Shown here one piece after another: positions 18,384 to 46,000 of a stretch of 64,000 bases of DNA. The stretch covers positions 12,888,124 to 12,952,123 of the forward strand of contig CM119265.1 of NCBI GenBank assembly GCA_051294375.1, read 5' to 3'. Source of the stretch: Paraspadella gotoi (Eukaryota > Animalia > Chaetognatha). Position numbers and translations under genes: made by a program. The notes under the pieces were generated by a model that made no database searches, was not told the origin of the DNA, and was given only the letters and a program-made list of their open reading frames with translations. Numbering within the stretch: position 1 is the first letter of the stretch; every line of letters begins with the position of its first letter.

Positions 18384-19029
18384 TGATTGATAATGAAATT
18401 GAGAGAAAGAATCTTCACTTCATAAACGGACTGAGTTTGCCTGCATTTAAAAATAATTGTCAAAGGGAAACTAAACGATTTCGAGAAAAAAGTGGCTACA
18501 CTTCTTCTAAATGCAATATTAAACGTACGGGCAAGACAGAATATCACAAGCTCAATTATGAATTAGAAATAATACGAACAAATTTTTAAGAAACCATAGC
18601 AAAATTAATGATAAAAACTAAAAACGTAATGACATTTAGAATGTAAAATAACTTAAGAAAATATTTCATGACATGGGAGAATAAACTAAACAAAAATTAT
18701 ATAAACATGATTGATTAGAAAACTTACTAGTATAAATATACAATACAATCCGCCAAATTACAAGTGAATAAAAACTCCGCATAATCTAAGTTCAATAAGC
18801 AGATATAGCGGGTGGACCGGGCTAATGTCAACGAACACATACAGTTAATCGCACTATGATGAAAATGCAATTCTAAGGCACGATATATATTATATATAGC
18901 AACGAAACGCGTTTTACGGGTTTTACCAACGATTTATTTCAGTTCCACTCGCAACACCGTCGAGATGCGTCTTTTTTAAAATTTTTTTTATTCCGTTTTT
19001 CGTGCAGATCCGTTAAAATTTATTTTCAA

Positions 19030-22000
19030 TCAATTAAGGAATTTTCTGCATTTTTTTGAGCCGCAATAACAAGGTATTTTGACGTCTTCCTTAGGGAACT
19101 TGTAATCGTAAGTTAGTTCTTCGCCGGGCAGAATCCGTCGCTGAGCAAAAATGACGATGTGTTCAAGTCCCTCGGGGCCGCGAATGACTCGGGAGAAACA
19201 GTTAGGTTCGCAAGAATGGTTGATAAAACGGGCTGTGGGATTATGGATAAAATGAAATTGAGGAAAAAAGCTTCAGCATACGCAAAAACAAATGAAATAA
19301 CCAAACAAATTTGATATCTCAATCTCACCGGCGTTGCCGTGCATTGTCGCGTCAATGACGGTATCCGGGTCGATTCTGAACATATAGCATCCGATTCCTT
19401 TAGATTCGTATTTCATTTCACGGGCGTCGGTGAGAAAAGAGCGAATGAGCTGTCCCGCGTATTCGATGATCATTTCTCCTTCTTCGATGGTGCGCTTGCA
19501 AAATAAGCCTCGACCGTGAATTCGCGATCGGTACACGCCAACCGCTTCTTTGGCAGTCTGAAAAGGAAATCATTTTAGTTAGTCACGACTTGGGTAAAAA
19601 TTCCAAAATCACTTCTGACCTGTTTGAGGAACCGAAACCTCATTCCCAATGGAAGATGTAAGCAGGCAGTGGCGCGTTTGGCGGCCGCCGTCACCAGCGA
19701 TTCCTCCGATTCGGGAACGGGCGGAACGGGAGGTAGGCGACGATGAACAGAGGCTAGAAAGTCGAACATGTCGAAATCCGAGCGAGAAGCGTATGGTTCC
19801 GAACGACAGCATCCTGACAAAAAGAAAGTTATTTAATAAAAAATAACCAATTACTTAGTCTTCCTTGAATTTTATTCATATGAGTTCAAGCGCTAACCAG
19901 AATGACTTTCTTCAATGTGGTCGTCTTCTTCGTTTACCCGCGCCGCGTGCGAAAACCAAAATTTGTACAGTTTGAGCCTACTTCTTCCTTTCAGTTGTTC
20001 CAAGATGTAAACGATAGACGCTCGATCGAGGCCAAACATAGCTACTCCTGAACGAGCACCCACGAATGACAGCGGATTCAGCCCTAACAATTTTCGTCCT
20101 GCAGAGAAAATTATGAAGGCACTAAAAGTCGGATAAACAGAGTGGCTTAAAAAAAAAATTGACAAAAATAAGATTTCCGAAAATGTCAGGTTTTCACTCA
20201 CCACATTGAATTTTTGCCGTGATATTTATCCAAGCATCGTCGATGTTTTCGCTCTCCATAAAGAACCCGTCATCACTTCGGATCCGAAACACAATCTTGC
20301 TCTCCACCTTCTTCTCTTTTTTTCTGGGTGAACCGCTCTCTCCGACTGTTGATTTGGGCCTTACTAATCTCGTTACGGGACGTAAACCACCTCGGCGACA
20401 CGTCCAACTGTCTCCCGGGACCGAATAGTCCATAGCAGGGATCTGATTTTCGTTGCTTTCGTCAACCTCTTCCTTTTCTTTCCAAGGATCGACAGGCAGT
20501 CGCGTCGTTTTTGATGGAGATCGGATCAAACCCTCAACGCATCGCTTTTTCGAAGGCGTCGGACCGGATATCGCGAAAGATTTTGACAGGGTCGGGGAAT
20601 CGCCTTCCCAGTCCATCTGCAGCGGAAGGCCGCCCGCGCCCTTTTGCTGCATCCGCTGTTGCATCCAGGATGTTATTTGCTTCTCGTTAAGTCCAGTCTT
20701 GACCATGAGTTTATCAACGTCGCTGTTAGTTAACACAGGATTGGGAGAGCCGCTCAGAGTCAACGGGCCGCGATGGTGAGTTTCGAACCAATGTTCCAAG
20801 ATAGCCGTTTGAATGTCTGAAACAAGGCAGGTCTGCATCTTTTCAACCTTGGTCCTCCGTCGATTTTTGCACCATTCGAGAATAAACTCTCGGGACTTGT
20901 TAGTTGACTTGACAAGCTTATAAATTTCGCGACTCGTAGGGAATCCCGTTTTGTGATTCACGAACCACTTTTCCAAAAACGTAACATAGTTCGACTTTTC
21001 CTGATGTGACGAAGTGGCGCTGTTTTCGTCGAAACGTTGGCCAAGAATTTGTTTTCGACCGTGTTGCTTCCGTTGGTTCTCCAATTTTGGCTCCTCCTTG
21101 ACAATGTTCTTTTTGATGGGCTTTTTGTGATGATGATCGTGGTCTTCCTCGCTTTTTTTCTTTTGATTTACCGTCGACATTTGACGGCGCACTGCGAACC
21201 AATCTTGCGTTGTCTTCATCGGGATTCCAACCTGCGAACTGATTGCTTCCACCTCGGCCGACGAGGGAATTTCATCCAGCTCGTCGTAGCCTTGCATCTC
21301 GAACCACCGTTCCAACGTTTCCATGATCCTATTTGCATGCTCATCCATCGTTCGAGAGGAAGGACTTGGTTTTCCTGTCATTATAGACGAGCGGATTGCT
21401 TCAAAACGACTGCGTCTGAAAAATAAAGGTCATTTTGAATTACACAGTAAATAATTGAACGACAAAGAAATGAAAATTTTCAAATTACTTGTTTCACTAT
21501 TTTCTATTTTTATATTTTATGAAGGATTTAGTATTTGATTTATATTGTTTAAAGTTTTAAACAATATATATTGCTTTCTTTCTTACTAATCTTACTAATC
21601 ATTATATCTAATAACTCAATTTGGGAAGGGGAAGTCAGAGTTGTCATCTGGAAATAGAGGGAGCATCTATACAACACAAGGTTAAATTACAATCTGTCCT
21701 AGTTTTCTAACAGATATCACACATCATTTCTGTTAGAAAGTCATTAATAAAAAATCCTAATATGAAATTGGTACAACCAATATAAAAATTATCCATTCAT
21801 TTAATAAATAAGCTATCTTGCCCCTGACTGATAATATATAAGAGGCTGAACAGAAAGGGGTAGGAATGGATAATTTTTTGAGGGGGGACCAAAGTTATAT
21901 GTGATTTTTTTTACCAATAGGGGCACCTTTATGTCATGAATATAATTTTAAAATACTTTAATGAAAATTATATTTTTTCTTTATCCTATTTTTAATTATT

Positions 22001-25000
22001 TCTTTTTTTGAATATTTTTTATTTTTAATGTTTATTCAATGGGAAAGTCATCAGTTGGGAAACTATACCCTTCATGGATTTCGGCTCTTTAATCCCAATA
22101 TCCAGGTATAGGCGAGCCATCACCAAATGGTGATCCTTCATTGTTATCTTATATTTTAAAGGTATATTTTGAATGTATAATTTAAACAGACCAAAGCCCT
22201 AGTATCACAGCTTTATTAATTTTAGGGAAATTTATTAAGGTTTTGTAATAATTTGTAAATGAATTAAATAAGTTAAATAATTAATTAAATATTAAGTAAA
22301 TAATCAAGGGTATGTTAATGTAAAGTTAACATTAAGTTAATTAATAAAAGTTAAAAAATAAGTTAAATAAGTTTTTTAACTAATATTGTTGATGTTATTA
22401 TTATTATTATTTAAAGTGGTTTAATTTTGTTATTTTTACCTTATTATTTCTATTAGGAATTATCATGTATAATCTTTTTCGAAAATAGATTAATATCATT
22501 AATTTTATTGTTTACAAACAACGATTTTTTTTATCAATAACTACATGTTTATTGTTAAAGCCTTGCTTTTGCAATGCTTTATCAGCGCAATTTTCATAAT
22601 TCGGGGTAATTCGGAACACTTTTGGAAGTAATCCAATTTTCGCATACTAAATTTATTAATTTTTTTTTCTGGTGATATATCTTGGAAAGTGTCCCCGCTT
22701 AAGGTATTCGTTTTATCCTGCGGTCACAAGGGGCCGCATTTTTAAAACAAGAACGGTGATTCTAATGTGTTGCGCCGCAGTGACTTTATTTATTTATTTT
22801 CCCTTTGATCACATGATATGATTTGACATGACATGAGTAAAAAGCATTCTTAGCCCTTGTATTTATGATATGCACTGCATCGAGTGTTTTATTTATTCCT
22901 CAATCCTCATAGTTTAAAGATTTCCTGAGAAAGGCGCTAGCAGTCCCTTAGTTGCTTCGCGAGTACTCGCGCCGCGACTAAAAATAGAACACCTAATATA
23001 ATATGTATACATTTTTATAATATTACAGAAAATAATAACTAAAACACTTAATAAGAGCATAAAGCCTTTCATTAATGTTTTATGTATCAGTTTTGCAGTT
23101 TTTCAAAATTATAGAATCGTTGTACTACCTAACAAAATAAACTTTTGTTTTCGCTAATCCCTAAAACAACGAAAAGAGAGAAAATAACACAAAATATATT
23201 TGTAATAATATTCTTATAAAATAGTAAATTTTAAAAATAATTTTTTTAAAACTTTTAATAAAGATTCAGATTTTTCATAAAAAGTTGAATCAAAAATATA
23301 AAACGTGTTATCAAAAATTATGTCATCTTCAGCGCTTAAAACGGAAAAAAGGGTGAAAATTCTTAACTTTTTTATTCTCTGTAGTAGAAACTTATATATG
23401 TTAAAAAGTTTTAGTCATTTTTTGTGATCCAAACATTAAAATATCGTATAAAATATTTTTTAAGTTTCTTAATTTTTTACGGTGAATCCAAATCTGTTCT
23501 TAAAAATAAAAAAAATATTATTTTGAAATTTAACGATTTAATAAAGATATTACTACATAAATAATTGAATTTACTACACTGTTATGCTAAAAAAAATTTT
23601 AAAAGGATTTAAAATTCATTAATCACATGTCCATAGGCAGCAAAAAAATATTGTTCAATCACTCAATCTTTTCATCACAATGCATAGTTCGTACATCTCT
23701 CAGACTTATTTTGCTGTACCTCATAGATCGATCTCAGAGGTCATGGTTAATACTAATAGCTAAAGAAAAACGTCACTCACCGATAAGTCAGCGTTGACCT
23801 CTTGTTCTGGAACCACTTATTCACTTTCTTTGCTGGGACGTTACTGAGTTTTGCGAGTTCCATGATTTGCTCTTTTGTAGGTTCGTAGTTTCCGGTTTTT
23901 TTAAGAAACTGGACGAGAATTTCTCGGCGCTCAGATTCGGGCACAATAAATCGGTCTTGTCGGCGCGCCTTGTCGGGCGAATTAACGACCGAAGACGATG
24001 GCGTTGAAGAGGGCGTAGCGGAAGTTGAAGTCGGCAAAGAGTCAGTCTCACGTTTTATGGAAAGATCAAGCGGGGAATTTGAATGACTACGAAGAGCGGG
24101 GTCTACAAAGATGGGTGCCGCGGATGCCATTTTATATTCCAGAGCCTCTTGTGGCACCGTGACGCCTCGTTCGTTTGTTTGATCGATTCCAACGGGATCT
24201 TCTTCTTCCGTCCCTTCGACACCCAATGATCCCGTCAACGAAAGTAAAGTTTCTGCAGCCTGCTGCAAAAAGTCTGTCTCTTCCGCGGCAGAAATTCCTT
24301 CGTCAAGGTCAGCGACACCACTGCCAAACAAAGCGCCCGAGGTAGGTGTGGCGTTTCCGCCAGAGGCGACGGAGCTATTATTTTCGCGAAGGACGCTGTC
24401 AAAAAGCGACTCGTCGGCGGCAGCGAATCTCGACGATTCGTTTGGTGACGCGATTTCCTCGGCGGTAGCTTTTCCTGTATCATTGGGCAAGTCAGCCTTA
24501 ACACGAACGTCGAGGGTGAACCCATCTTCAGTCCGAGTGAATTGGTCCATAGGGCTCGGGCTCCGAATGACGCGACTTTCGGCGACGTCCTCCCAACAGG
24601 AATTCGATTCGTTCCCAACCGTTTCCACTTTCATTACCGTCGTCGATTCAGACGCCATTTTCCTTTTTCGTCCATAGGTCTTTTTCCCTGAATCAGTAAA
24701 TCGCGAATTCAAGAATTCGCATGCGTCATCGCCCTGCATCGAAGAAATTAACGTTATGCTTGACTCATTCGGCGATGGTACGCCCCCGCGATTTACGTAA
24801 ACCGTTTTGTTATTGATGGAAGTCATTGAGGCCGACAAAAGCGGCGGAGAGGGTCTAAATGTTTCGCTCTCATCGGCGTCTTCTATGTCGTTGTTCAAAA
24901 AATAAGTAGGAGATTCTTTTTTCGTTGCGAGTGAGAAAAGATCAGAATTGACTGTGGTTATAGGACCGTTGGTCCAGTTCGATATGAGCTGGTTCGTGTC

Positions 25001-28000
25001 TTTCTTTTCTTCAACCAATTCTGAGTTGGTGTCTTGATAACTTTTCGAGGACAATGAATTTTCTAAAAGATCGTCTTTAACTTTGGGGCAGATTACGTAA
25101 TGCTTACGCAAGGCGCTGTAGTCTTTGCAAACGATTCCGCAACCGTAACAGTTTTGTTCGTTTGTTGGACAAAATCTGGTGTGTTTAGCCAAACCCTGTT
25201 TACCAAAGCAGCCCTGTCCGCACTTCGGGCACTCGATCAAAGCCTTGTCATTACCAGAATCCAAAGGAACGGAATGAGTTTCTTTGGAGTCGATGCGAAT
25301 GCGTTGGTTGGTACAAACCAGGAGATGATCCTCTCTCGATTCCTCGGGAGAGAAAACTTTGTCACAACCGCAGCAAACTTCCATCTTTGGGCAAATCGGT
25401 AAATGTCGATTGAGATCTTTTAATCCCTCAAAGACTGCTTCACATTGATTGCAAACCTGAGGGCCAGGGGGAGGGGGCGGCGTAGGAAGTGTTCGACCTT
25501 TGGTTAATGCCTTCAGAGTTTTTGGATTCAAATTGGAGAACCCAATATTCGGTGATGGCTCTGCTGAATGAGACACTTTTACGTTACTCTTAGAGGAAAT
25601 AACGGTCGAGGAAGTAAGAATTGCGGAAGGCACTGCTCGCGTATTGGCGATTGAGGATGAAACGGATGGTGAATTAAATTCGACAGAAGCAGCAGTTGAT
25701 ATCGGCTCGACTTTCTTGAAAACGATTTTAGAATTCATTTCTGCATTTTTTGTCATACGACGGTTGGCAAACCACATGTTAATGCTTGCCTTAAGTAATC
25801 CAGTAGCGACCATTAGCTGCATTACCTGAATATTGTTAGGTGAATCAGAAGTATTTTGAAAAAAGTCTTCGAGAATTTCTCTATTCTTTTTAGTGTTGGC
25901 GAGAATGTCTGTGGTTAATGGTAATGATTTAGAAGTTTCATCGTTTGATGGCGGTGCAGGAGTGATGGAGACGGATTCGATAGGCGAGAATGATCCTTCC
26001 CCAATATTAGTGTCAAATTTCATAGTATCATGGCTCAATCCTCCTACAGCGTGCTTGACTGGAACAATCTGCGGATTGGTACTTATTGGATGCGGACTAT
26101 TAATTTTAGAGATTGATTCATTCAATCCAGATGGAGAGAGAGAAACAGACGATACACTAAGATCAGCTGAGGTTGGCCCATTAATTGATGACGATAAAGC
26201 TCGGTTTACATTTGTGATAGATTGAGCATTTTGACTACCAGTAACTGACGACTGTTTTGTTTGTAATTGCAATTGTGGTATTTGGTTAAAAAATTTTAGT
26301 TGCCCATTGACATTTATGGCGATAGGGGCCTGTGATGGCTGCGAAGATATCATGTTAAATGCATCTAAGTTTGAGGAACTGGATTTAGGCCCAAATCCGG
26401 TTATTTGATTGGCAGAAGCAGAAGCATTTATAGAATTTGCTATAGATAACAGTTGAGCCGTATTAACAAAAATTGGAGGTTGGGACGGTAAAACGGGAGA
26501 TGAAAATGGTTGCTGAACTTGAACATACGTTTGTGGCGAAGTTTCGAGTTTAGGAAATATTTGAGTTTGCCTAGCATAAACAAAATGCGGATGATTTGGT
26601 TCTTGCTTCATGATTAATTGTTGAGGTGTTTGAGATTGAACTAATGGTTTGTTAACGTTTTTATTTTGATTTTCGAAAATAGTCCTTTCGAGCTGCTGCT
26701 GTTTCTGTCGTTCCTTGAAAGACGCCTTAGCAGTTGCCTTTTCTTTTTGTTTGACAAGAGGACAATACCTGAGTAAATGACTCCGTAAACCATTTTCACC
26801 CCAAAAGTTATTTTTGCAGTGGGGACACTGCTTAGTAGCCGGCGCAATACTGGAAGTAACTTTCTTGTTGAAACCTGTCTGAACAGTTGGGGCTTCCTTT
26901 AATTGTTCTGAGACTACCGAATTCTCCTGCATTGTCAAGGCATTAACAGCTGCAGCAGCCTCATCATGCATCGGAATAGGAATTCCTTCTTTCCGATTTT
27001 TGAATTGTCTCGTTTGACATGTCAAAGTTTGCTGATGGGACTGAATGCTTTGACCCTTCTTTAGAACCATCCCACACAGATTACATTTGTAACCAGCATC
27101 AGCCAGACATTTCGTTCTATGCTTTCCATAAGTCCATCTGCTGGAAAAAACAATTTGACAAATGTCGCATCTTTTTGGACCTTTACTCGGACTTTTTTTA
27201 TTTCCACTAATGCCTGGAGCAGGAAGAGTAGCGGTAGGGGTGGGAACATTTTCTGATTGAGGTGAACAATACTGAACAGGATTAAAATTGGCACTAACGG
27301 CGTTAATGGCACCCGAAGGTCGCATCAAACTAGATTGAGCAACGGAGACGTCCGTAGCGGCTGGTGTCCGCATCTTACAACCGCCACCTAACTGATGTTC
27401 CTTCAAGCTGCAGTCGTTGGGAAATTCCCCCATACAATACTGGCAAAATTTATTAGATCCTTGATGCAATAGATGACGCTGGAAGCTGCTCAGATCGTAA
27501 AAGGTATTGTCACAATAACGGCAAAAAACAGAGTGTAGGGGAGCAGCGAGAGTATCGTACTTAAGTCGGCAATTTCGCAGATGACCCAAAAGTTGCTTCA
27601 TGGTATTAAACTTGGTACGACAATGGGCACAAAGTTCGGGTGTGTTACCGAGTTTGGCTTCGCTCACCTTCTGTTTTTCTAGTGCAATTTTGGAGCACAT
27701 CGAATTAGATGTTGGCTTAAGATGATCTTTAAGTTTTTCCTCCGAGTCAAAACAATGGGAACAATTCACGCACTCGAAACAACCACCAGGCCCATGAACG
27801 CATCGTTTTGAATCTAAGTCGAGAGAGACATCGGATTTAATCGGAGCATCTCGAGATTTTGAAACCACCGCCTTCTGTAAGGGCAAAACCCTAGACGACA
27901 AAAAATTTGGCTGTTCACCGATGGAGCCAGATGTTTCCACGAGTGAGAGTGGAAGAGACTGAGGCATTAGAGGAAACGGTTCTGGAACGTTAAACTCGTT

Positions 28001-31000
28001 GACTACATCCGGGGCATCTACAGGAAGATTCTCCGCCAGAGATTCTACATCGATTTTCTCTCCCGGAGCCAATATGGAGCTTTCCTCCAGATTGTAGGAA
28101 AATTGAAATTCCGAACCTGCAACGTCAGGACTTCCAACGGGAGTCACGATCGGGGACAGGCCAGATTCGGCAGTCAGGGTAGAGAAGGACGATGCAACAG
28201 ACTCTTGGGTAGCTTCGTCGTCAGTTTCGACGTCTCTGACCTTGAGCAAAACGTTGATACGATCCACAGAGTTTTCTGAACACGAAGCCAGGGCCTCGTC
28301 ATCTCCGACATAAACCACCTCTTTCTTAGATGTTTTTTTGTATTTTGTTTTTAAGATATCTATTACATCTTCGGGCGCGACGTATGTCGGAGCTTGTGAA
28401 TCGCGATGATCGAATGTCACGTCGGCATTAGGATAAGATGACGCGGCGACGTTCGGACGAACTTCAACGATGGTGCAAGTGTAAACACAACGTTGGCCAG
28501 GACGAATGGCGCTCCAAAAGACTCGAGAGACGCTGTATCCGATCGGGTAAAGGCACTCTTTAGTCTCCGAGACACGGTGGAGTTCGCCCCAGGAAGCGAC
28601 GGTCAGAGATCCAACGAGCAAGCGGAGTTGCTGAGGCTGAAGCCCTAAAAAAGGGAAAAAAATATCTTACATTTTGTTCGATTGAAAAACTGGTACATGC
28701 TGAAGTAATCTGCGAAATACGAATTCGAAACTATTTTTAAATACTTAGGTATGTAGTTTTTAAAATATCAACGTATTACTTTGTACGTACGTTATAACAG
28801 GAAATTTGTCAAAAAAAAATTCTGTCAACATCTCACCTTCCTTCCAGTTTCTTTTCAACCGATCCTCCGTCAGAGCTCTCAAGTTGATAAACAGCCTCCG
28901 ACGGTTGACAAAATCCTGCACCAATTCCTCGTGACGGTTCGATCTGTCGTCTTCTTTGGCGGCGTGTGAAGGACAGAGGACGCGCTTGGCGCAATGAAGC
29001 CCCAACAGAAATGCACAGCCTGTTAGTCTGGCGCACATAAAGTGGTATATAGCGGTGCAACCGTTTACGTGACAAGCGACGGAAGCTCCAGATTCCCGGC
29101 AACAATCGCAGCGAAAATTTTCGGCATCCTTAAGAAAGTTTGCGGCATAAAGAAGGCCGCCGCCGCCGTCCTCGAAAACTCCGGCACTCCATAGGACGCA
29201 GTTGGCGTGGAGCCAGTCGTCTTGACCGGCATAGAGGAGGCGTCCTTCGTCGGATGGTTGGCCTTCACCGTAAATAGAACAAAGACGACATTGGCGAGAG
29301 TCGTTGTCTCCCTTAATCGCGGACGGGTTTCCAGACGTCGAAGACGACTTCGTTTCCATCGAGGCGGTTTTGGGGCCGAAAAAGGCGTAAATGTGATCGC
29401 TACTTTCAGGCTGTCTCGTCGGAATGATAGACGGTTTTTCCGGCGTCACGTTGTGCTTCTTGATTCGCAGCTTTTCCGCTTTTCGCGATGAACAGGAAGA
29501 AAGAGATTCGTCATCGCTTTCACCTCCGAGCATCTTTTTTGCGTCGAACCAAGGAAACTGCTTCTCGATTTGCTGACTGAGAACGCGTACAACGTTGACT
29601 CCGTGCTCTTTGAAAGAATTATCCGAGGGCCCCGACGAAACGTTCGTGACAAAAGTGATGATGCGAAGGACGTCCTTGACGAATTCTGTGACGGATGTAT
29701 ACTTTCCTCCCTCGAACTTGGACTTGATCTCCAGGAGATTTCTAGGAAACCCGTTGTTTTGAAGATCCCACCCCGAGGTTAACTGTTCTTCGGCGATCCA
29801 TTCAGGAGATGTAGGATTGAGTTGAATAAGAAGCGAAGAACTCGGAGCATCGAGAAGTTTCACCAAAACGGCCATTATTCCTTTATGAAAAGTAAAGAAA
29901 ATAAATATATCGATAAATACAAAAATCGATTTCAATTCTTTTTCTAATATACCTGAACTCATCTCTTCCCAGAGAGCGAATTGCCACGGTGCTGGTCTTT
30001 TAGTCAAACACGTAACGCAAAGGTATGGGATGTTGTCGGGCAATACAGAAAGAATCTCATACATTTCATCCGACAGTTTTTCGCACTCGGCATGAACCCA
30101 CATGTTGCATCTCCCACACTGTACCATTTTTGAGGAGTAGTCCGATTCGTCGTACCTAGATAATTCAATTCATATTATCGATTATAATTTTTAAATTATT
30201 ATCACTATTCTTATAATTGAAGAATGAATGTTAAGGTCCCAAAAAATTGACAAGAACAAGTATAATTAATCGATCTCACAAGGCAACAGATAATAATTCC
30301 ATGGGTTCAATAATTCGATAGGTTTAAATTTATAAAAAAAATTAAAAACCAAATTCTATACTTACTACTTTTTATACTATTATCTTAAACTTATAATTTT
30401 AAATTGCCAAAAACGATACCCCTAAAATGAGACCCATAAAACCTAATTATGCCAAAAACATTGATTTACCATTTGTGACAAAGCGGGCAACAGCTTCCTT
30501 GGTCCATCAACTTTCCGCACTGGGCACAAAGCGAAAAGTCGTGCGTCCATTTGGCACCAAACGGGCCCGGAGTTGTCGCCCCGCAGTTCTTGCACTTCAC
30601 GCACGCGGTACACATCCAGACGCCATTTTTAGATTTCTTCTTAGCGTAGTTTGAACCGCCAACACACAGAGCGTGAAATGTACGGTGACAACCGTTGCAA
30701 GATAGAACGTCCTTTTGAAGGCCGCAAATCTCGCAGTACCTGCATTTGTTGCAGACCCAATTCTCGATGAGCTTGAAAGACGTCTTCAAAGGAGTAGCTG
30801 ACTTGAAATTTTCCGATTCTGGGCGCACTAAGGAAGATGGAAGACCGTTGTCGTTAGAGTCTGGAGAAGAAGGTGAAACTTCTTGCATGAAGGGACGCTC
30901 GCTCGGAGGCAAACAAAACACGTGAAACGGTTCGCAGCACACGTTGCAATAGATTAGAGCGTTCATATCCACTCCAATGCTCCCACACAGGAAGCACGCG

Positions 31001-34000
31001 GCGTTAACAGGAATGGCTTCAGAAGATGCGAGCGTCCAGCCGCATTTCCAGAGGGTGCCTCCAGAAAAGTCGTGAATGACTTCATGAGCGACTTTTAGCG
31101 AATGAATTGGGGACAATTTTTTCGCCGGTGTCACATTTTGCTGAAGTCCGTAACCGGCCGCGGGAGCATAGGTTGTGATGGCTTTGAGGTCTTTTATCGA
31201 GGTCGGATTAGGTTTATGACGAACAATAAGGTCGCTCAGAGCGGGGTCCTTAGCGTTTTTAAAAAAGCTGCGTTGCATGGTGGCTCGATCGCGGAGGCGG
31301 TACTGCCGAGAAGGATGTTTATTTGCGTGTTGCTTTCCCGATGCAGGAGCTGAAACGTCTAACTGCTTGTGCAGCTGTTTGTCCTGCTTTTGTTGCAACT
31401 GTCGATGTGCAGCCTTGCTAAGTTTTTGTGCTGCGCTAAGCGCTGCGCTGACAGGAGTGTGGGGTTTGCGGAAGGGAGATTTCTTGAGAGTTGGATTACG
31501 AGATGGGGTCAGGGGAGATACAGAAGAAACCGCCTTCGAGTAGGATCTTACTGGCAATTCATCCTGAACGAGATTCTCCTCCTCGCCTTCATCGTCGGAG
31601 CCAAAGTAACGAACCTCGTCGTCCTCTTCCTCAAATTCGACCAATTGCTTAAGAATGTTGGGCGTGAGTTTAGCCAATTCCGGATATAGGGACAAACATC
31701 GACGAAAAATACAACCGCGTATTTTCTTTTTTCTTCCGTTACTTCGCTTGTTATCCGACCGTTTGCGCTGGATACAAAAAATACACTCATCGCAATTCGG
31801 GGCCAAACATCCCGCGCATTCGTTGCAACGAACACGAGATACGAATGGTCTCCGAGATGATGGCGGTGTGACGGGTGGAGAACTAAAGGTGGGCGAGGTT
31901 ATCGCGGCTACACTAGGGGGCAATGAATCATCCTCATTTTTCAGAGCTTCAGTATTGGATGCTCCCTCCTCAAGCTCATTGCTAACATTTTTCTCCCCGT
32001 CGTTGTCCAATAAAAAGCTTTCGCCCAGTAAAGTGTCTGCATTTTCTAGGTGGTTACTGGCATTATCGTCACTCGGAAAAATTTCATCGTCATTGGAAAC
32101 AACGAGATGATTTGAATCCCCTTCACTGACAATATCCTCATCCGTATCGTTTGCATCATCTTCATGTGCATCTGTATCGTCATCCGTCGCAGTCTCACTA
32201 TCTGCATCTTCCTCACAGACAGTCTCATTGTCACTTCTATCGATTTTGGTGAGCTCTTCGTCCTCACTGATGATGTCTTCGTCGTCGTCTGTAGAAACCA
32301 ACTCGTAAAGATCAGGAAGAGTTTTTTCATCCGATTGTTTCATGCGAATTTTCAGTTTCATCATGGCCGACTTGGGCCTCGACATTGTTTCTTCTTTACT
32401 TCCATTGCCTTTGACAATTTCATTATCCTTATAATTAAAATCATGGAAATCTGCACCGCCGACTTCTTTCTCCTCCAAAATTTCTTCCTTAGTGGGAATC
32501 TCATTCTCAACTAGATTCGACAAACTTACCATGCATTCTTTCATATCAAATGGTTTAAAGGGTGATCGAAGTGAAGATTTTGACTTAACCGCACTATCTT
32601 CTTTCAGGTTTGGAACTCTCACGATTAAGTTTTTGTCATATTCTTGAGTTTTTAAATTGCTATCTCTCATTTTAGATTTTATAACAGTATTTGTATTCAT
32701 AAAGTCAGATCCTTCCACTACCGAGGACATAAATTCTTCGTCGGTTTTTTCGGAAGAGATAGAATCTTCTAGAGCTGTATTACCTTTACAAACATCTTCC
32801 GTTCCATAACTTGGAACATCGTCAGAGTTTGAAACTTCGTCTTCTCGTGCTTCAGGGTTTAAAACCTTAGAATTAAAAACATCGTCTTCTTTCATTTCTA
32901 AGTTTAAAACGTCTTCGCCATCTTCAGAGAACAAGACATTAACATTTGTTTCTTCTACTGCTTTCAAGTTTGAAACTTGGTCTAACTTCTCTTCAGTATT
33001 TAAAACATGCTTTATTATTTCAGAGCTAAAAACTTTGTTTTCTCTGTGTCCAGAGTTTGAATTTCCACAATTACAGTCCAAAACATCCCCCCTTATTTCA
33101 GAGTTTGAAATGTCATCTGTCGCTTTTGAATTCGAAAGTTTGTTTGTTTTCGTAACAGAGTTGGAAACGATTTCTTCTTTCATTTCAGAGGTCAAAACCT
33201 CATCTGTTGTCGTAGAGTTAGAAACATCGACTTCTTTCCTTTTGGAGAACAAGACATCCTTTTTAGATTGCAAAATCTCTTCTTTTGCTGAGGGCAAACA
33301 AAGTGTTTCAGAGTTTATAAAATTATCTGAATGACAGTTTGTGTGACTATATTGTGAAATATAGGAGTTACTTTTTAACTTGAAGACTTTTGAGGCTTTT
33401 GAACATAAGACCTTGTACTTTTTCGTCCCAAATGCTTCCACCATTTTGTACACTTTTTGCAAATACAGTCGTCGGGCGAAAATTCTACGTTGCGGCCCGA
33501 TCCATCGGCCGCTGCCATCACGCATTGGATTAGCAAGAAAGTGTGCCACATTCCAAATTGGTCCGAAATATCGCACCGAACGCCAGTTGGGCGTTGTAAT
33601 ATCGAGATTCCAACCGCCTCTATTCTGTTCTTTTGTGTTCTGTTTACCGCTTTTTTTGGATGCATCCCCATGGTTACCTCCGTCATTTTTTTTAGTACCG
33701 CCGAAACCTCCGATACCGCCTCCGCCATTTTCTCTTTCTGAACCACCACTCCCAAGCCCATTATCACCCCCCATTGGCGGTGGTGGGGTCGGCGTCCGTC
33801 CTCTTTTTTGTACTTTGTTGTTCCCATGAACGTTTTCTTTCTGGAGCTTTCTGCATCTGCGTCTCACGCATCTTTGCCGCAAAATTTGGCGGCCTCCGTT
33901 GCGCGCGGAATCCAAGCAGAAAAGGCAAGAGTCACAATTAGGAGCACGACATCCATCGCAGTCATTGCAACGGCCGACGAGAAAGTCCTGTTCCATGGGA

Positions 34001-37000
34001 TCCTTGTCGGTCTTGGAGACGAGTTTTTTCTCTCGTGTACCTTTTTTCCCTAAGATTACCTTGGGTCTCCAACGAGTTTTTTTCAATTTATTATTTCGTT
34101 CTTTTCGCTGCATCCAGGACTGCCGTCGGTGGGTGGCGACCAGCGCTTCATCGGCCATTTCGTTGGTGTTTTTTATAAGCTCATCAAACGTTAATCCTTC
34201 CGAGTCTGAGTTCCGGACGTTTGCTTCCTCGATGGCTTTAGTCTTTTCATCGGAAGGAAGGGCTGAAAGGCGTACGAAATCGACGCTGGATTCGGATCCA
34301 ACGCTCGACGTGGCGTCGTCGTCCGCGGCATCCAGTTTCGAAAAGGGCGGAACATCGTTACCTAGGGATATTGACGCAAGAGAACCGCACTTGGCGGGAC
34401 TACCTTGCCGTTTGGCGACGGAGGCCTTCCGACACACATGCTTTATTCGAGGTCCTTTTACTTCGTCGACCGAATCATCAAAGACTTCTAGCGGTAATTC
34501 ATGATTTTCCTCCGTAAATTTTGAATCTGATACGAAAAGCCCGGCCTTCGTTTCCTCTTCGGCGTGTGAGGATATTGAATTGTTGTTCCCCTCGCCAGCG
34601 TCGCCATTGTCGACGCCGACGCCGAACGAGGGCGAAGGTGCAGGAAATTTCGGTCTCTTTCCGCCGGCCTTGCCAAGACCCTCTTGGGGACCGTTAAAGG
34701 AGGACGACGACGTGGTGGACGGTCCGTCATCATGTATGCCGACTGGAGATGTCGGAGAAGAAGCGCTCAAGCTGAACAGAGGATAAAAATAATGCAACTT
34801 ATTGTAACTATTTCGTTTATTTCAGGAACTTGTGTAATGTGTATTCTTACCGTCTCAGTTTAGGCGGCGGCGACTTCTGTACGCGACAGGCATCGCACCT
34901 CGCGTTTCCGTGATCGAAGCTGACGCCGCATTTGGAGGAGATATGTTTGGGGGAGTGAGAGCCAGGTCCATGTGTCCATGATGTAGGCGCGCAACCGGAG
35001 CAAACGGCTGATTTGTCTGATTAAACGAAATTAAATTATATACAAGAGCAAAATTACGTTGTTTAAATTAAGGTTTAAATAACGAACTTTCATCACCGTC
35101 AACGTGTTCTCGACATATGACACAAACTCGTTCTCTCTCGCTATCCGTGAGTTTTCGGTTTTCGCCAGTGCTGTTATCGTAAAGTAAAAAGGTTAATGCG
35201 GTCTTTCAACAAATAAAGGAAGATAAAAACTAACACAGAATACCTGTCTCGCATAACAGAAAGTAAAGAATCAAGTTGAGGCGATTCATCGAGAGGTTTA
35301 GGAGAAAGCAAACCTCCGGTGATGCATTCGATTCTATACGTAAATTAAAATAAAAAATTCAAGACGTTTTCTCGCCATGAAATGGACAAGTTCGTTATTT
35401 CCTTACTTTGAGGAAGAGTTATGATCGTTTTTGGTCGTCATTCCAGTGGATCGTCTTGTTACGGTTTTTTTTTCATCCTCACGAATCTATCATTGATCAG
35501 AGGGAGAAATTAAAACTTTATACGTTTTTTATCGTCAACTTTGAAAACATACCCAAGTTTCACTAAATTTCCCAGGGCCAAGTTTTGATGAGGCCCTAGC
35601 AACATCTGCCAGGGCGCCTTTTCGTGGTTTCCAAATGAGAGATTGATCGGAGGACGTGTGCCCCTTGCCTTTTGGAGATATCTCATTCGACGATGGTTCA
35701 ATCGATCGATTGGGGGAAACTGAAAAACCTGAAAAAATGTTGTACGACTTTCGTAGAGGGGCTTGATCGGGAAGTAGAACTAGATAGACTTAAAAGAAAC
35801 AACCAAGATTAGTTACCTGGAATGGTCGGAACACTGACACCCTCGGCCATGTACCACTTCAACTTGTTGGAAATCTTCCTCTCGCGTTTGCCCGAAAGTA
35901 TCGTTGTCTTATCTAAAAGCGCCGAGTTTTCCTCCACCCATTCCATCGCCCAACCTTTAGATTTGGAACGGGGCGATTGCGGGTCGCTACGCCGCGTTTC
36001 AGGAGGAACAAACTTGGGTGGCGCGATCACAGGCTTTTTAGAACAATGCCAATCTAGACGAATAGACGAAAAATATAATATCTTAGCAAGTATTTTTCAT
36101 TATTGTATGATTTTAAGTGGTTAGGGATAAGATACCTGGTTTATTCATATCTTTGGCAGGGCTCGAGCTCACGGACGAAGGAAGAGAAATCAGATCCCTA
36201 TAGTCGTCGCTCGTGGAACTTCGAAAAGAAATAATACGTTATCAATCATCCCAGCTTTCAGTTACCGTCAGAGAGCTGAACGACCTGGCTAACCTGGGGG
36301 ACGAGTCGAGGCCGGATGAAAGAAAAGTAGATTTTCCAACGGATGAAACGGAAGAGGCGCCGGTCGAGGCCGCCGACGACGTGGTGGAGTCTCCAGCGTC
36401 TGAAGGGCAGGGAGAAGGTAGTCGATGCGGGTGTCTCCGATCCAATGATCTCCTGATGAATATTAACATCATTATTTTAACTAAGATAAAAGGAGAGAGA
36501 CAGTTAATAAGAATCTTACCTAGAGGATCTTCTCATTTCTTCGTCTATGATCAATGGAGGCGTCGGAGATTTGGAAATGAAATCCCTTTCGCTGACGGCC
36601 CGCGATTCGATCTTTTTTCCTTTAGTCAACGAGGAAGTTTTGTTCCTTTGGCTCTCGTTCGCGGAAGAAGAAGACATGGGAGAAGAGTCACGACTTGCTT
36701 TAGTTTTGACCCTTTCTGACGTCAAGCTCTTCAAAGTAGCATCAATCATCTCGGATGCCACCGTCGTTTTTCTCGCTTTATCCTTGTCGCAAGGTAATTG
36801 GGAACGCTTGGAAAACTCCGGGCTTGTTTTCGTAAGTGGCTTTTCCGCGGGTTTCGAGGCGGCAGCTTCCGTTTTATTAGATTGATTGGGCAACGATTTT
36901 TCTGGCTTGTTTTTGAGGGATCGCGAGGAAACTACACGAGAAACGGTAGATGTCAAGGGTGAAGATTTGGATTTTTGTTTTTTGTCGCCAGATTTCGTCG

Positions 37001-37645
37001 AGTCGGTAATTTTAATTTCGTTTTTCGGCGTCCCTTTAGAAAGACTCTTCTGCCTAGAATCGCCGCCTCCAGAAGGTTTTTGCTTGTTATTGTAAAACAA
37101 TTTGTTGCTAGGATCTCCAACGGGCTTGGAATTTCCTTTGCTATTCTTAGATTCGTTTTTAATTTGAGGCATTACTCCCGGGGGCATTTCCACGTCCGAT
37201 TTTTTTGAGGAAGAGTTTTGTTTAGACTGGGCAGTGGAGGAAATCGGCACAGAATGCTTTGGGGTGACACTACCCTTTAATCCACTAACAGTACTGTTCC
37301 CTTGGTCTTCTTCAAAAGCATCGAGAAAAGCGGCGTCGAAATCCGTTTCCGACTTATCGACTTCCGAGCAAGAAAATCCATCAAAGTCGTCCACGGATGA
37401 GTCATCGCTTAGAGATCCACCGAAAATGCTGTATGCGTATTCAAAGCAAAACGTTAAAAATTTATATAATATTGCTTTTAATAGTATAGTATTTATTATA
37501 CGAACCTGTGAAAACCTTCGATGCTCTTTTTCAATTTTCCGAGGGCCTGTCCGAGGGCTTCAGGCATATCAGGTTTAGTCTGGGGTAAGCGCGCCCGTCC
37601 AGCGCGATGTCCCGGTCGCGCCGGAAAGCGTGGACGCGCAGCCAT
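19030..37645 (-). CDS. KMT2A: KMT2A/B (MLL1/Trithorax)-type histone H3K4 methyltransferase with extra CXXC, CCHC zinc fingers and homeodomains
   Basis: N-terminal menin-binding [12 protein letters not shown] (ATG 37645). CXXC at ~33850-33975 and ~31695-31835; PHD1-3 ~31000-30000; bromo-like and ePHD 29880-28840. FYRN ([30 protein letters not shown]) at ~28640-28470 and FYRC at ~20300-19960. Win-like SGCCRSE, SET ([39 protein letters not shown]) and post-[16 protein letters not shown], with stop at 19030. About 19 GT-AG exons. Confidence 0.95.
21761..21828. repeat. 68-bp dispersed repeat (probable 3' tail of a second PLE family)
   Basis: TATGAAATTGGTACAACCAATATAAAAATTATCCATTCATTTAATAAATAAGCTATCTTGCCCCTGAC is essentially identical to 62126-62193 and 62451-62518. 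A partial inverted copy lies at 63648-63672. Confidence 0.8.
22900..23620. mobile_element. Degraded AT-rich MITE-like remnant in a KMT2 intron, related to the element at 60647-61765
   Basis: Shares an inverted TTTCCTGA..GGCGCTAGCA motif (22921-22942 vs 60781-60802) and the internal inverted pair GATTCAGATT / GAATCCAAATC. I found no intact TIRs. Confidence 0.35.
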
Positions 37646-37796
37646 GTCGACGCGCTTCTGGCAGACGCCAGACGTCGAGAGAGGGTAAAAAAACCAACTC
37701 AATTATTCATAGAACCTGAAATCAATTCGGTTGTAAAACGGCAATGACAAAAAAAAAACATTAACACGCGCGAATCACTAGTTTATGATCAACTAA

Positions 37797-40700
37797 TCAA
37801 CGATTTCTTTTCTTTTTGTTCATCTTTTCTCTGTATAACTGATAACTCTTTTTCGCGTCTTTTTTCAATCTAGTTTTTAGAATATTCTCTTTCGATTTTA
37901 ATCCGTCGCCGAGGTTCGCCTTCGCAGCGTCGTTCTTCGAGTGCCATTTCCGTCTGAATCCCATCGCCGGGTTGACGTTCGGGGGAGCTCGCGATTTCGG
38001 CGAATCGATCTCTCCGTCTTCACCTTCCTCCCTATTGAGAGCCTCCGCTTTGCTAACCTTCTTCCACTTGGCGTATCTGTCAGTCTTGTACGACGCGGTG
38101 ATCCACTGGCCACTTTCGTTTTTGATTTTTTTTCCGGCCTTCACCTGCTTCTCGTTGACGCCGACAAACTTCATCTTCTTCCGATCCCAGCGCTTTCTTT
38201 TCAGAAGATCCCGTTGACGACGCATGGCATCATCGTCGTCGCCAGTGAGGTCCATGGTAACCCCTTTGGCTTCAAACTCGAACGAGTTGGAGCTGGAGAC
38301 CTCAAGACCCCTCTCCGAATGAAAATCCTTGGCGAGGGAAGGCACGTAAAATTGGTCATCCTTAAAACTCTTCGCTTCGTTTTTTCGACTTTTCTTTGCC
38401 TCTATTTTTTTGAAAAAAGCGTCGGTACGATTCTTAGGAGCGATGATGTTGGCGCCGAAAGTATCGGCGATGTCAGCGCCGGAGGCTTCGTCGAAAGAAA
38501 CTTCGGTGCCGTCGACCGTTTCGACATGTGACATATTGACGTTGGCGTTTCCATCGGTTTCTAACTTTCGTCGCTTCTTAACGACAATCTCATCATGGGT
38601 CTGCCGCTTTTGTTTCATAACCGCCACCGCTTCCGTTTGTTTCGATTTATTGATTTCGAAAATTGTAGCTTGGGGACGGAAAGATTTCATATCCGACAGT
38701 AATTGTTGCAAAGGCTGTTTTCAATAGAGGATAAGAAGTAAAATAATCTTTAAGGATATTAAACGGTACTGTAAGAGTTACTTTTCCACACCTCGGCGGC
38801 ATCCCCATCCGATACTAGACATGGATGGGGTGCGATAGTTGAAGAGGCAAGATTCATCAATTTTAGTCGCTTCGAACTTTCCGTCGACGCGACCGGTCGG
38901 GATTTGATGTACATTTTGTAAGCGTTTGTTGTTACCTACGTGCGTCAAGATTAGACGTTAATATGAAAAATAAGCTTAAATTAATTTCATTTCCATTTTC
39001 CATTTTACCTTGACCAGATTGCTGACTTCGGCCGAATCCGTAACAAAACGGTTTAGAGAATCTCCTTCGCGATCCAGGATTGACTGTGGAACGCCACCTA
39101 CGAGGCCGTCTTCGTCGGAGGCAGAATTCGGCTGAGCGAAGGTAAGGGTTCGACCGAGAAAAAGGTGGAGATCCAGCAAGTGAGCGAATTCGTCCGAGGA
39201 AACGAGGGAGTAGGCGGTACCAGTGGCGCCCGCACGTGCCACTCGCCCGACACGATGAACGAAAACTGACAAATTAAACATTGACGTGTAAAATTTAGCG
39301 TTAAATTAAATTAAAATAAATTATTATTAAATTATTTTCGGTAAAAATTTCTTTCAGCTAAAATACAATTTAGCATAATTTTTCACTAACCTTTTGCCTT
39401 TGCGGGGAAATGAAAATTTATGACGTTGTCCAACAAAGGGATGTCAATTCCTCGAGCTGCCACGTCCGTAACTATCATCACCTTTTTGTTATAATAACCA
39501 AATTAAATTAGGATATATTAATATTTTTTCCAATACAATCAAGACCATTACCTTGGCCTTTTTCAATCGGAATTTGGCCACCTCTATCTTCCGGGCTACT
39601 TGATCAAGAGCAGAGTAACAAAACGCAACCTCAAAACCAGCGAGAGTCAAAATCTCCCGAAGGAATTCAACGTGATGCTTCGTGGCGACAAAAACAAGAG
39701 TTTGCGCGTCTGCGGCGACGACTTGACGCAAAAAGTGCAAGAGCAGCGCAACCTTGTCCTCTTGACGTACGTAGAGGAAAGACGTCTGGAGATTTTCGCT
39801 TAACTTCGTCTCGACGTCCAGGCGAATCAAAGTAGGATCCTTAAACGTTGAATAAAATTTTCGGTAGGATAATAAGCCAGGTTTGCACCAAAACTTACCT
39901 TTAGGCCGGCTTTGGCAAAGTCTACCAGCATTTTGGGCAAGGTTGCGGAGAACAGTAGCGTTTGTCTCCTAGAGTCATTTGGAAGGCGATCCAGGATTTG
40001 ACGCATTTGGTCAGCAAAGCCGAGCTCGAATAAGCGGTCTGCCTCGTCGAAGACAATGTACCTGCAATTAATGTCTACTACTACTAATCGCTTTTAAAAA
40101 TTTTAAAACTTAAGGACTGTCAATTCGATTTCATTTCTCGTCTTCCTTGACCAATGAGCTATTCGCAACTAATCAAGTAAAAAATGAGGGAATCCTCGGA
40201 CCTTACTCGACGGAATTGAGGTTAAGATTCATTTCCAAAGTGACATGAAGAAACCTTCCCGGTGTGGCAAGAATCACATCGGGGTTGGTATGAATGGCTG
40301 CGAACTGATCCTCGATCTTCTCTCCCCCGAGAATGACGACGGCTTGAAGACCAACGAAGCGACCCAACTCCTTAGTGAATTTCAAAGTTTGTAAGGCGAG
40401 CTCGCGCGTGGGCGAAAGGATCAGGGCACGGACGCCTGTAGCGATAAGAAAAGGATAATGGAATTTGCGGCTAAATTTTACTTTCGCCGACCGATGTTTT
40501 GGCGTATTTTTATAAACTATTTAAAAATATTTATGTTAACAAAATTTTTTTTAAAAAATTATTACCTAATTACGCTAACCCTCAACCCTCTTAACCCTAA
40601 CCACCCCTAACCCTAAACCACCCTTAACCGTAACCCCCCATAACTCTGGTCGTCTAAAGTAAAATGAACCCGAATTGCTATCAAATCACGAATAAACAGG

Positions 40701-43013: not shown

Positions 43014-46000
43014 CTAAGACGTCTTCCCCGAAACTGCGGATGCAGACGACAAAGAGGAAGCAGGTGTCGACTGCGGAGTCCTCTGGGATATCGCTAAGGT
43101 CGGAGGTGGCAAAAAAGCCACAGAAAAACGGCGGTACGGGTGGTATGGCGTTGCCTCTGAAGATTCAATGGAAGAGACATGAGTTCTGCAGAGTTTCTGA
43201 CCATCTTTGGAGAGTCCAGCGCCCGTGAGCCAGTCTTCAATTTGCTTGGCGGAAGATTTGGTCACGTGCTCTTTAGTCCACTCGTCGTAAAAGCGGAGAA
43301 AGCGATGATAGAGACGAAGCGAGACTCGTTTGTGCGACTAAGAAAGTTAAACAAGAGATGTTTATGTTTATGTACTTTTTTAAAACGTAAAATTTCGACA
43401 AACAAAACACTTACCCTCTTGGCCTTTAGCAGACTGGAATGCTTGTAAAGGTAGCTTTCACTGTTGACTACATAGAGCATCTTGAAGTTTCCAAGACTAA
43501 ATTTGCACTCGATATCATCGGTGACGGTCAGGTCCGAGAGATTTATTCGCGAGGCGGACGACGTTGCTGTCGCCGGAGCAGTCGAAGACGTCATCAGCGG
43601 CGCGGACGAGGAAACTGTCCTTGGTTCTTCCTTCTTTCTTTGATCCACTCGATCACTAACGCCGCTCCGAGTTCCTCCACCCGATCGTCTCTTTATTCTC
43701 GACCTCCACCGGCGGATATTCCGCGATAGGAAGACCGGCTTCCTTTTGAGATGATCCCGAAGCTCAACACCGACGTCGTCGTCGATGCCTCCGGCCCCGA
43801 TTAGAGAGAGAAGCGCCGCCTCGGATGAAGCGAGGGGCCCCATTTGGCACTCGTCAGTGGCAGAAGACGGATTAGTAGTTCCTTTTTCTTCTTTTGGTTT
43901 AGCGTCGCCAATGTAGTTGTCAACGTAGTTGCTCCACTTTTCCGCCTCGGCGACTTCTTCTTGACCCGAGTTCGTTTCGCTTTCTGTCACGAGCATTTCG
44001 ATTGAGATGTTCATAGATTTGTTGTGCTGAAAAGATAGGAAAATGGAATTTAGGAAACTTCAATTGTCATCTTAAAAATGAGTTAGATAGAATGGATCAC
44101 TTACTGTTATGACTTTGTAGCAGTTTTCTTCGGCTAAGGCTTGCTCGACCTTTTTCTGGTAGGCAGCTTCGTGACTTAAATTGCCGATTGCGGAAGCAGC
44201 GGAAGCGCGATGAAGAACGCGAGACTCTTTAAACGCCTCAGTCACCATTACACAAGGGTCGTCTTGAACCAGATGTTGCAACTAGAAAATATGTATGTAG
44301 ATATTAGATAAATATGTCATCGAAGGTATTAATTTGAAAGTAAATTAAAAAGCACGTACAACAAAAAATTGTAATATACAGGGTAGTGATTCAAAACTTA
44401 GAAAATTAAAATGTTACTGCAGCTGAAATCTTTTTTTTTCAGCTGTGTACAATGCCTTTTGTTACATCCATGCATAATAACCCCAGGACTATTGGCTCTT
44501 TATACCTGAGAACAATATATAGTAGACTGCAGCAATGGATTTTTGCAAAAGTATTTTTCTTTCATCTGATGCTGCAGTAGATTACATTAAGCGATTTACT
44601 TGATATTTTACACAGAGATTCCCAACTACATCAGTTATTGATTTCATAAGCGCACAGAATGGCACTTAACCAGAGTGGCTGATACAGTGTGAACTTAAGA
44701 AATAAAATAAATTTTTACAGCATATTAAAATTGCTTTTATTAATTAAGGTTAAAATAGGTCCTATTAAACTGGGGAAGTTAAATGGCCATAGGATAATAA
44801 AGATAAGATGTTCCAGTAAATATTTCTAAATAGAGTTATTTTCTTTCTTTAGAATTTTCCTTTTAGCATAGAATTAATCTACGAGCGTGCATGTCAGGAA
44901 CAAACTCTTGTGGAATCTCGATTGGAACTTTGTGGAAATCCGTATAAACATTTGTGGATTTAATTAATTCATTGATTGTCTTATTTAATTAAAGATTCAT
45001 TGATTATTCATTCTTACGTCATTGATAATTATTTAATTGATTCATTACTATTTTTCCCCTCAGCTATCATGAGTTAATGATTAATATTTTATAGCAGAGG
45101 TGTTGGGTACTTAGTGTTTTCTTAGTGATCCCTTTGTGCTCACTAAGCTGTGGTTACTGATCCATTGTGTCCTTTCTTGATATACAATATTACAGTGTAG
45201 TGACTCTGGGCTAGTGAAACTGTTGACGCCCTGCTGCCCGCGTCTAGTGGCATACGAGCAACGCTGAGACTCTTTAAGCTGCCCCTTTGGTCTGCAGCCA
45301 CCCGTTGACATTGTTGGTTTGGGGTATGCTACAATTGTTACCTGCAGCATCCTTATAAATGGCCCTAATCAACTCGGGCTTGAGTTATTATGAATAGTAG
45401 TTATTCCTATTCTGAATAGCCTTCTTAATAATATAACATACTGCTAGTCGTGGTTTTAAGCTCAAAACCGGCGAAAAGCAAATTCGACAAATGTTGCATT
45501 CTTTTTAGTAGCGCAGCGTATTGTAACTGTAAGAGCATGAAAAAAATAAAACCTATATCAGAAAGAGAAAACGTCGGTGATTATTTTAGTATATTATAAA
45601 AAGACAATAACTTTTTGCCTATAAAATATGATGGTAAATACTATTCTAAGTTTTGATTCACTACCCTGTAGGTCCTAAAAATTGAAGACTTGGCATTTTT
45701 TAGGTCTCTATGAGCGAAATAATTTATATTATTGATTGAAATTTAATACATTAACTTAGTTTTTTAATATAACGGTGTTGGACATAAACTCTCGTCGTAA
45801 TCCATCGATCTTATTTATCTTGAGAATTTATTTATTTATTTATTTATTTTGAGAAATTTATTTATTTTGAAAAAACTGCAACCTCTTCACAACCATTGAA
45901 CCGTAATTCAAGTGAACAAAAGTACTCACTTGCCGGACGCAATTGGCGACAACCTTGTCAAGGGTGAAGGCAACGTAGGCATGGATGCCAAACATTTCCC

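Follow-up and report, generated by a model that had tools for sequence, protein, structure and literature searches.

Eleven zinc fingers, nearly all CCHC, and five homeodomains in the FYRN–FYRC spacer of a transcribed KMT2A/B-type gene of Paraspadella gotoi

Within the stretch of Paraspadella gotoi DNA analyzed here (64,000 nucleotides, which we call the window), a KMT2A/B-type gene encodes a block of eleven zinc fingers and five homeodomains in the spacer that separates FYRN from FYRC. The architecture is real, transcribed and partly conserved, and we see in it a variant of a known enzyme with a putative targeting mechanism. What are so many fingers doing inside a Trithorax-type methyltransferase, and how did they come to be there?

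The gene, which lies on the minus strand from about 37645 to 19033 of the window (Table 1), sits in gene-dense animal sequence with short GT-AG introns. With its SET segment, human KMT2A gives 124 bits and KMT2B 117, but KMT2C only 64, and so we assign the gene to the KMT2A/B or Trithorax type. The layout of the Trx family is present—CXXC, PHD cassette, extended PHD, FYRN, a long spacer, FYRC and SET—and at the likely N-terminus stands an RFPARP peptide that we take to recall the human menin-binding motif; a PDB search using the 46-aa first exon did not recover that motif. In a tree of the FYRC-SET region, the window protein falls, with low support, among the Trx-type loci, while L012, of KMT2C/D type, stands well apart, and the window protein groups with L017, L023 and L030 at 86/79; the tree has 19 rows (14 of 33 loci were omitted as short, along with duplicates), and it yields no conclusion about lineage.

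Table 1. Features of the KMT2A/B-type gene, in window positions
Feature	Position	Strand	Basis
Likely first exon, RFPARP peptide at its start	37505..37645	-	sequence
Two CXXC domains	33835-33978 and 31684-31836	-	Pfam PF02008, 2 stretches
PHD fingers, bromo-like region and extended PHD (three exons)	28837..31030	-	Pfam PHD, zf-HC5HC2H, weak Bromodomain
Large coding exon: FYRN, all 11 fingers, HD1, HD2	23781..28643	-	transcript contig, open frame
FYRN	28442..28621	-	Pfam PF05964 E 3e-15
Finger cluster 1, F1-F7	26762..27772	-	pattern; weak zf-C2H2-type Pfam matches
F1	27695-27772	-	CX2C-X12-H pattern
F2	27569-27631	-	CX2C-X12-H pattern
F3, ends H-X2-H	27464-27523	-	CX2C-X12-H pattern
F4	27377-27445	-	CX2C-X12-H pattern
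F5	27107-27169	-	CX2C-X12-H pattern
F6	27017-27085	-	CX2C-X12-H pattern
F7	26762-26827	-	CX2C-X12-H pattern
HD1, W48 F49 A50 N51 R53	25727..25900 (about)	-	Pfam PF00046 E 7e-8
Finger cluster 2, F8-F11, two CCHC tandem pairs	25088..25453	-	pattern; homologues; models
F8	25391-25453	-	CX2C-X12-H pattern
F9	25313-25375	-	CX2C-X12-H pattern
F10	25169-25231	-	CX2C-X12-H pattern
F11	25088-25150	-	CX2C-X12-H pattern
HD2, W48 F49 Q50 N51 R53	23783..23959	-	Pfam PF00046 E 2e-6
HD3, HD4, HD5, divergent	20629..21354	-	Pfam E 5e-4, 0.013, 0.0014
FYRC, intron-split	19809..20295	-	Pfam PF05965 E 7.5e-6 on one exon; tblastn to other loci's FYRC
SET and post-SET, KMT2A/B type	19033..19557	-	bit scores to human KMT2s; Pfam SET

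Some features lie outside the main argument. The two CXXC domains are ~700 aa apart, and human MLL1/2 are described with one. Upstream of them, small exons at 34851-35333 (minus strand) encode a Cys-rich stretch with four CxxC-like pairs and His; from its residues, this stretch may be a further zinc-binding domain, and the piece of it that was tested had no match in Pfam. The neighbors in the window carry WASHC4, cap-methyltransferase, DBP10-type helicase and Sin3 domains. Genes of chromatin and RNA adjoin KMT2A (37797-40000 and 43262-51899, minus strand), namely a DBP10/DDX54-type helicase gene, which ends ~150 bp upstream of the KMT2A start, and then a Sin3 gene; the cap-methyltransferase gene begins ~600 bp downstream.

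The sequence-only reading had taken the fingers to be inserted in KMT2, and the obvious objection is that such a block might be spliced out of the mature mRNA. The objection fails: the fingers share one exon with FYRN, and that exon is retained in a spliced transcript, in frame with SET. Four sequencing runs were mapped on 18500-37900, of which three behave as DNA and one, X6, as RNA (the RNA nature of X6 is the tool's guess, but its GT-AG joints are absent from the three DNA runs). A 15,244-nt spliced contig of X6 keeps the large exon as a single piece and skips 12 stretches of the gene, all of them GT-AG on the minus strand, the joints that flank the finger exon (28643/28836 and 21415/23781) included. 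When the sequence is spliced accordingly, a single open frame of 4,285 aa runs from 35480 to the stop codon of SET, in a protein that the numbering of the record implies to be about 4,850 aa in total. The three DNA runs carry the finger block on long contigs continuous with the FYRN-side sequence, and the sole exon difference within the block is a change of Val to Ile just before F8 in one of them. Because the exon is kept and its junction to SET is in frame, splicing does not remove the finger block, nor is the block an assembly chimera. The transcript evidence is one assembly of one run from one study, and a rare isoform lacking the exon could have gone unseen, as rare variants are lost from contigs. 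The intron at 21416-23780 is AT-rich and 2.4 kb long, and it holds very high-copy short repeats whose depth reaches thousands of times that of the gene.

The array itself is much as it had been described. All eleven fingers are in place on the minus strand, in one open frame of 1629 aa (23780-28666) within the 4.86-kb exon, in two clusters around homeodomain 1, seven before it and four after. The unit that had been written for them, CX2C-X12-H-X3-8-C, holds for 10 of the 11; the CX2C-X12-H part is common to all, but F3 (CRYC) ends H-X2-H, below the stated spacing, and its fourth ligand is thus uncertain. The real block has ten copies of the CCHC pattern, whereas 5000 shuffles averaged 0.016 and never exceeded 1. 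There are four tandem pairs (F3-4, F5-6, F8-9 and F10-11) with linkers of 5-7 residues, whereas F1, F2 and F7 are single. In nine of eleven fingers the fourth residue past the second Cys, a core position of the classical fold, is Phe or Leu, and in two predicted models—F8-F11 from 5 rows (pLDDT 69) and F8-F9 from 6 rows (pLDDT 82, pTM 0.56)—each finger is a beta-hairpin with a helix. F8-F11 are classical beta-beta-alpha fingers by sequence and models, and F1-F7 by sequence alone. Just before F1 (27773-27800, minus strand) are an extra Cys, His and Cys, which could form an added zinc site, to judge from the residues.

What kind of fingers are these? Taken piece by piece, they match only generic profiles of zf-C2H2 type in Pfam, near the cut-off, and fold searches return classical fingers, none at E 0.001 and none with a Z of 5. 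A likeness to FOG and UBZ fingers had been claimed, and it did not survive: neither has a Pfam match at cut-off, and the hallmark residues are missing. For FOG, the CCHC_ZFPM2 profile (PF25445) reaches 15 bits on F3 against a cut-off of 27, and the other residues that we take to contact GATA factors are missing from the window fingers. UBZ fingers have a ubiquitin-binding Asp or Glu in the three positions after the His; none of the 11 window fingers has an acidic residue there, and the UBZ profile zf_UBZ (PF18439) gives no match at E up to 1 on 7 finger pieces. The H-X3-C-P linkers resemble those of TRAF-type fingers, but assignment to that type is unsupported, with no zf-TRAF match and with fold rows at Z 2.1-2.8 and rmsd of about 8-9 Å. 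Nor is this a canonical DNA-reading C2H2 array: none of the eleven has a TGEKP linker (as had been noticed), ten of them end in Cys rather than His, and never more than two fingers stand in tandem. Arg occupies helix position 6 in 2 of 11 fingers and position -1 or 3 in none. The net charges of the fingers run from -3 to +4, with F2, F5 and F10 basic (+3 to +4). F9, at -3, has Arg in place of the core Leu, and the Asp after its second Cys is invariant in 6 of 6 aligned rows; an invariant acidic helix with a core Arg fits a conserved surface rather than a canonical DNA-reading helix, and canonical DNA reading by F9 would appear, from its residues, to be argued against.

FYRN and FYRC start 1,987 aa apart, and the five homeodomains share this spacer with the fingers. 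HD3, HD4 and HD5 are each below the curated Pfam cut-off alone and above it when their exon is taken as a whole; HD4 retains W48, N51 and R53, HD3 lacks N51, and HD5 lacks F49, N51 and R53. Two of HD2-HD5 have loop insertions between helices 1 and 2. C2H2-like fingers and homeodomains in one protein answer to the description of a ZF-class homeobox protein, and the sequence-only reading had seen in the layout a likeness to ZEB and zfh. The resemblance is there, but it goes only part of the way: the best solved matches of HD1 are ZHX1 (E 0.001) and ZHX2 (E 0.009), both weak, and the homeodomains are five. By its consensus (Q-hydrophobic-D-G), a Taspase-like site is absent from the 4,285 aa of the window protein and present in five of the six comparators with a whole spacer.

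Those comparators come from a set of 33 loci, several of them near-duplicates, found by a scan with the SET exon. The earlier claim that such arrays are not part of known MLL/Trx proteins held up, in that the array is absent from all six of the other KMT2A-type loci whose spacer could be seen whole: a lone CCHC finger is present in each of L027 and L029, fingers are absent from L001, L004, L007 and L009, and no homeodomain occurs in any of the six. (At L012 and L013, FYRN adjoins FYRC, and these are KMT2C/D-like.) Seven further loci gave partial views of the spacer. L005 has one CCHC finger; L023 has, at 2175-2657 (plus strand), two tandem KN-type homeodomains (Pfam E 9e-20) that share the strand of FYRC and precede it by ~6 kb, in an exon placed by genomic position, its splicing to the SET exons being an assumption; and L003, L006, L017, L021 and L030 show neither finger nor homeodomain. 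The single fingers (L027:642, L029:5848 and L005:232, plus strand) have the form CX2C-X12-H-X3-C and are not flagged by Pfam, and those of L027 and L029 come just after the Taspase-like site. The comparators' spacers have about 260 to 1,500 codons of genomic span, with content that varies widely. Thus the notion that fingers are foreign to the Trx spacer stands for the array but not for the finger as such, since three other invertebrate Trx-type loci have a single CCHC one. The finger array is not standard in KMT2A-type loci, and single fingers and homeodomains recur in the spacer.

The block is also not wholly private to this genome. When 1.84 billion representative sequences were scanned by HMMER with the finger block as query, 50 matches came back, four of them specific to cluster 2 (P0001, P0002, P0003 and P0007; E 6e-21 to 1e-9), with identities to F8-F11 of 54%, 57%, 41% and 32%, respectively; all four are fragments from short contigs of other organisms. 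P0001 and P0051 (a cluster mate of P0002) have, upstream of F8, the end of a homeodomain that includes a helix 3 like that of HD1, and the conservation of HD1 and F8-F11 together in other organisms suggests that the module is old. In F8-F9, all six aligned rows agree at all eight ligands and at seven positions besides, the Arg at position 6 of F8 and the E-S-R helix of F9 among them. No KMT2 domain is seen in the fragments P0001, P0002, P0051, P0003 and P0007, and their source may be either orthologous exons or a separate, stand-alone relative; P0003 has no convincing likeness to the window protein beyond the fingers. For cluster 1, the same scan gave no specific homologue, a weak blank because the library is poor in relatives of this lineage. 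The remaining 44 of the 50 matches are mostly ordinary C2H2 proteins, and the Atlas matches for cluster 1 are generic C2H2 proteins of low recognition value. P0004 and P0010 have dispersed CCHC fingers (24 and 10), none ending in His, and look like unrelated repeats. Run against proteins of 245-2000 aa, a profile of F8-F11 picked up 13 generic C2H2 proteins and, apart from these, only P0003, one of its own member sequences, and in metagenome contigs it found nothing; word-index searches of the finger exon against proteins of 2852-5000 aa (a weak method) gave no match, nor did ten window ORFs match any exact sequence in the protein collection. In none of these protein searches did a family-level match or a donor gene for the finger block appear.

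How old, then, is the insertion? Of the 18 non-ligand positions, no two fingers have more than 5 in common, which argues against recent tandem duplication, and there is no sign of recent foreign insertion, the GC3 of the insert being 0.32-0.47 and that of the rest of the gene 0.42-0.55, with GC overlapping as well. Mutual divergence and overlapping composition together suggest an old event. Most likely the array grew long ago inside an insertion-tolerant spacer, one in which other invertebrates have a single finger or homeodomains; the data fit growth from a resident finger as well as they fit fusion with a ZF-class homeobox gene.

What might the block do? The sequence-only reading had proposed a platform for partner recruitment or DNA reading, of which recruitment and targeting are the best reading and canonical DNA reading by the fingers is unsupported. 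We would put at about even the chance that the block works as a platform for targeting: DNA would be contacted by the intact homeodomains and proteins, for the most part, by the finger pairs, with the FYR domain holding both close to SET. In human MLL, FYRN and FYRC are described as pairing into one domain after Taspase cleavage (PMC6647185). By analogy, they may pair here too, and given that pairing and a protein with no Taspase-like site, the finger–homeodomain block would hang as a loop beside SET on an uncut chain. HD1, HD2 and perhaps HD4, all of which keep N51 and R53, could read short AT-rich DNA sites. With no canonical linkers and few base-reading arginines, the CCHC pairs would mostly bind partner proteins or brace neighboring domains; fingers of the classical and CCHC kinds are known to use the helix, or the back of it, to bind proteins (PMC9226498). 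The block might act alongside the two CXXC domains and the PHD fingers to make the enzyme favor certain promoters or enhancers over others, and with fingers and homeodomains in the same message, the enzyme likely has targeting of its own and would be less reliant on partner transcription factors. Against the targeting platform, the invariant Arg6 of F8 and the basic F2, F5 and F10 would suit DNA, and the conserved fragments may come from a stand-alone gene. A bolder form of the idea, which we advance only tentatively and think rather more apt to be wrong than right, is that one lineage's Trithorax is a self-targeting, uncleaved H3K4 methyltransferase whose module of 11 fingers and 5 homeodomains finds targets by DNA sequence without recruiting factors, with F8-F9 as an undescribed tandem CCHC domain.

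One might suppose instead that the fingers read DNA pairwise alongside the homeodomains, as if a ZF-class homeobox factor, or something like PRDM9, had been fused to the methyltransferase. The predicted fold is classical, the best neighbors in sequence and fold are DNA-binding C2H2 proteins, the Atlas look-alikes of HD1 with cluster 2 are ADNP, TSHZ, ZEB and zfh1 (0.87-0.90, leads only), and the short linkers of the four pairs and the Arg6 of F8 are compatible with such a role; but the missing TGEKP, the limit of two in tandem, the scarcity of Arg, Asn, Gln or His at -1, 3 and 6, and a model of F8-F9 that overlays DNA-bound pairs poorly (rmsd mostly 6-9 Å, TM at most 0.44) incline us to doubt it, although it is the most serious of the alternatives. 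That most of the block is cargo tolerated in a disordered spacer, with only F8-F11 and HD1 functional, seems to us unlikely: no relative of cluster 1 turned up in the scan, F3, HD3 and HD5 are degenerate, and spacers elsewhere vary in length and content, but ten fingers retain all four ligands despite their strong mutual divergence, and the blank for cluster 1 counts for little with so few relatives of the lineage in the library. Several UBZ fingers also have the CCHC ligand set, and there are weak fold rows to TAX1BP1 UBZ and optineurin-type fingers (E 0.46, Z 2.6). H2B ubiquitin, according to the abstract of PMC9499523, stimulates MLL1. One could imagine from this UBZ-like ubiquitin readers that hold the enzyme to H2B or H2A carrying ubiquitin, but the silent UBZ profile and the lack of an acidic residue just after the His make that quite improbable. 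Scarcely credible is an artefact, whether mis-assembly or a separate zinc-finger/homeobox gene or retroelement in an intron; the adjoining 2.4-kb intron is full of high-copy repeats, yet no support was found, and the DNA runs continuous with the FYRN side, the transcript contig in frame on both sides, and the single exon for FYRN and fingers all stand against it. The targeting platform remains our preferred reading.

Set beside known systems, the protein is familiar in its frame and strange in its filling. PRDM9 is an H3K4 methyltransferase with its own finger array, a PR/SET domain joined to a tandem C2H2 array of near-identical repeats with canonical linkers; the window fingers are divergent CCHC pairs instead. 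KMT2A and KMT2B (MLL1 and MLL2) and Drosophila Trithorax share the order of CXXC, PHDs, bromo-like region, extended PHD, FYRN, spacer, FYRC, SET and post-SET, from which the window protein differs in its two CXXC domains, its 11 fingers and 5 homeodomains in the spacer and its lack of a Taspase-like site. The domain list for MLL in PMC6647185 is without such fingers or homeodomains. Other invertebrate Trx-type loci have one finger (L005, L027, L029) or two KN-type homeodomains (L023), with no locus seen to have both, and L027 and L029 retain the Taspase-like site, unlike the window protein. ZF-class homeobox proteins (ZHX, ZFHX, ZEB, TSHZ, ADNP), for which PMC4901127 gives 2-23 fingers and 1-6 homeodomains, likewise combine several of each, but theirs are C2H2 fingers rather than CCHC, and here the block sits inside a methyltransferase. 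With FOG/U-shaped, the array shares the classical fold, CCHC ligands and dispersal along a long protein, and F7 adds a terminal Tyr-Cys and the H-X4-C spacing. A homeodomain within a cnidarian MLL1/2-type protein has reportedly been described, and so the homeodomain part may be partly known; our literature search did not retrieve that report, and the cnidarian protein is not known to us to have a finger array. The same search (of a library with few subscription papers) found no description of fingers or homeodomains in a KMT2A spacer, and we know of no report of such a finger array in KMT2A.

What does it mean? To our knowledge, no Trithorax/MLL enzyme has a means of reading specific DNA sequence other than CXXC and AT-hooks, which is why the choice of targets by these enzymes is a long-standing question. 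Natural homeodomains and a finger array near SET would provide a direct test case for hard-wired targeting. The FYRN–FYRC spacer appears to be a slot for modular insertions across invertebrates, the window protein suggests that Taspase cleavage can be lost, and its homeodomains are ones that homeobox surveys would miss or misfile.
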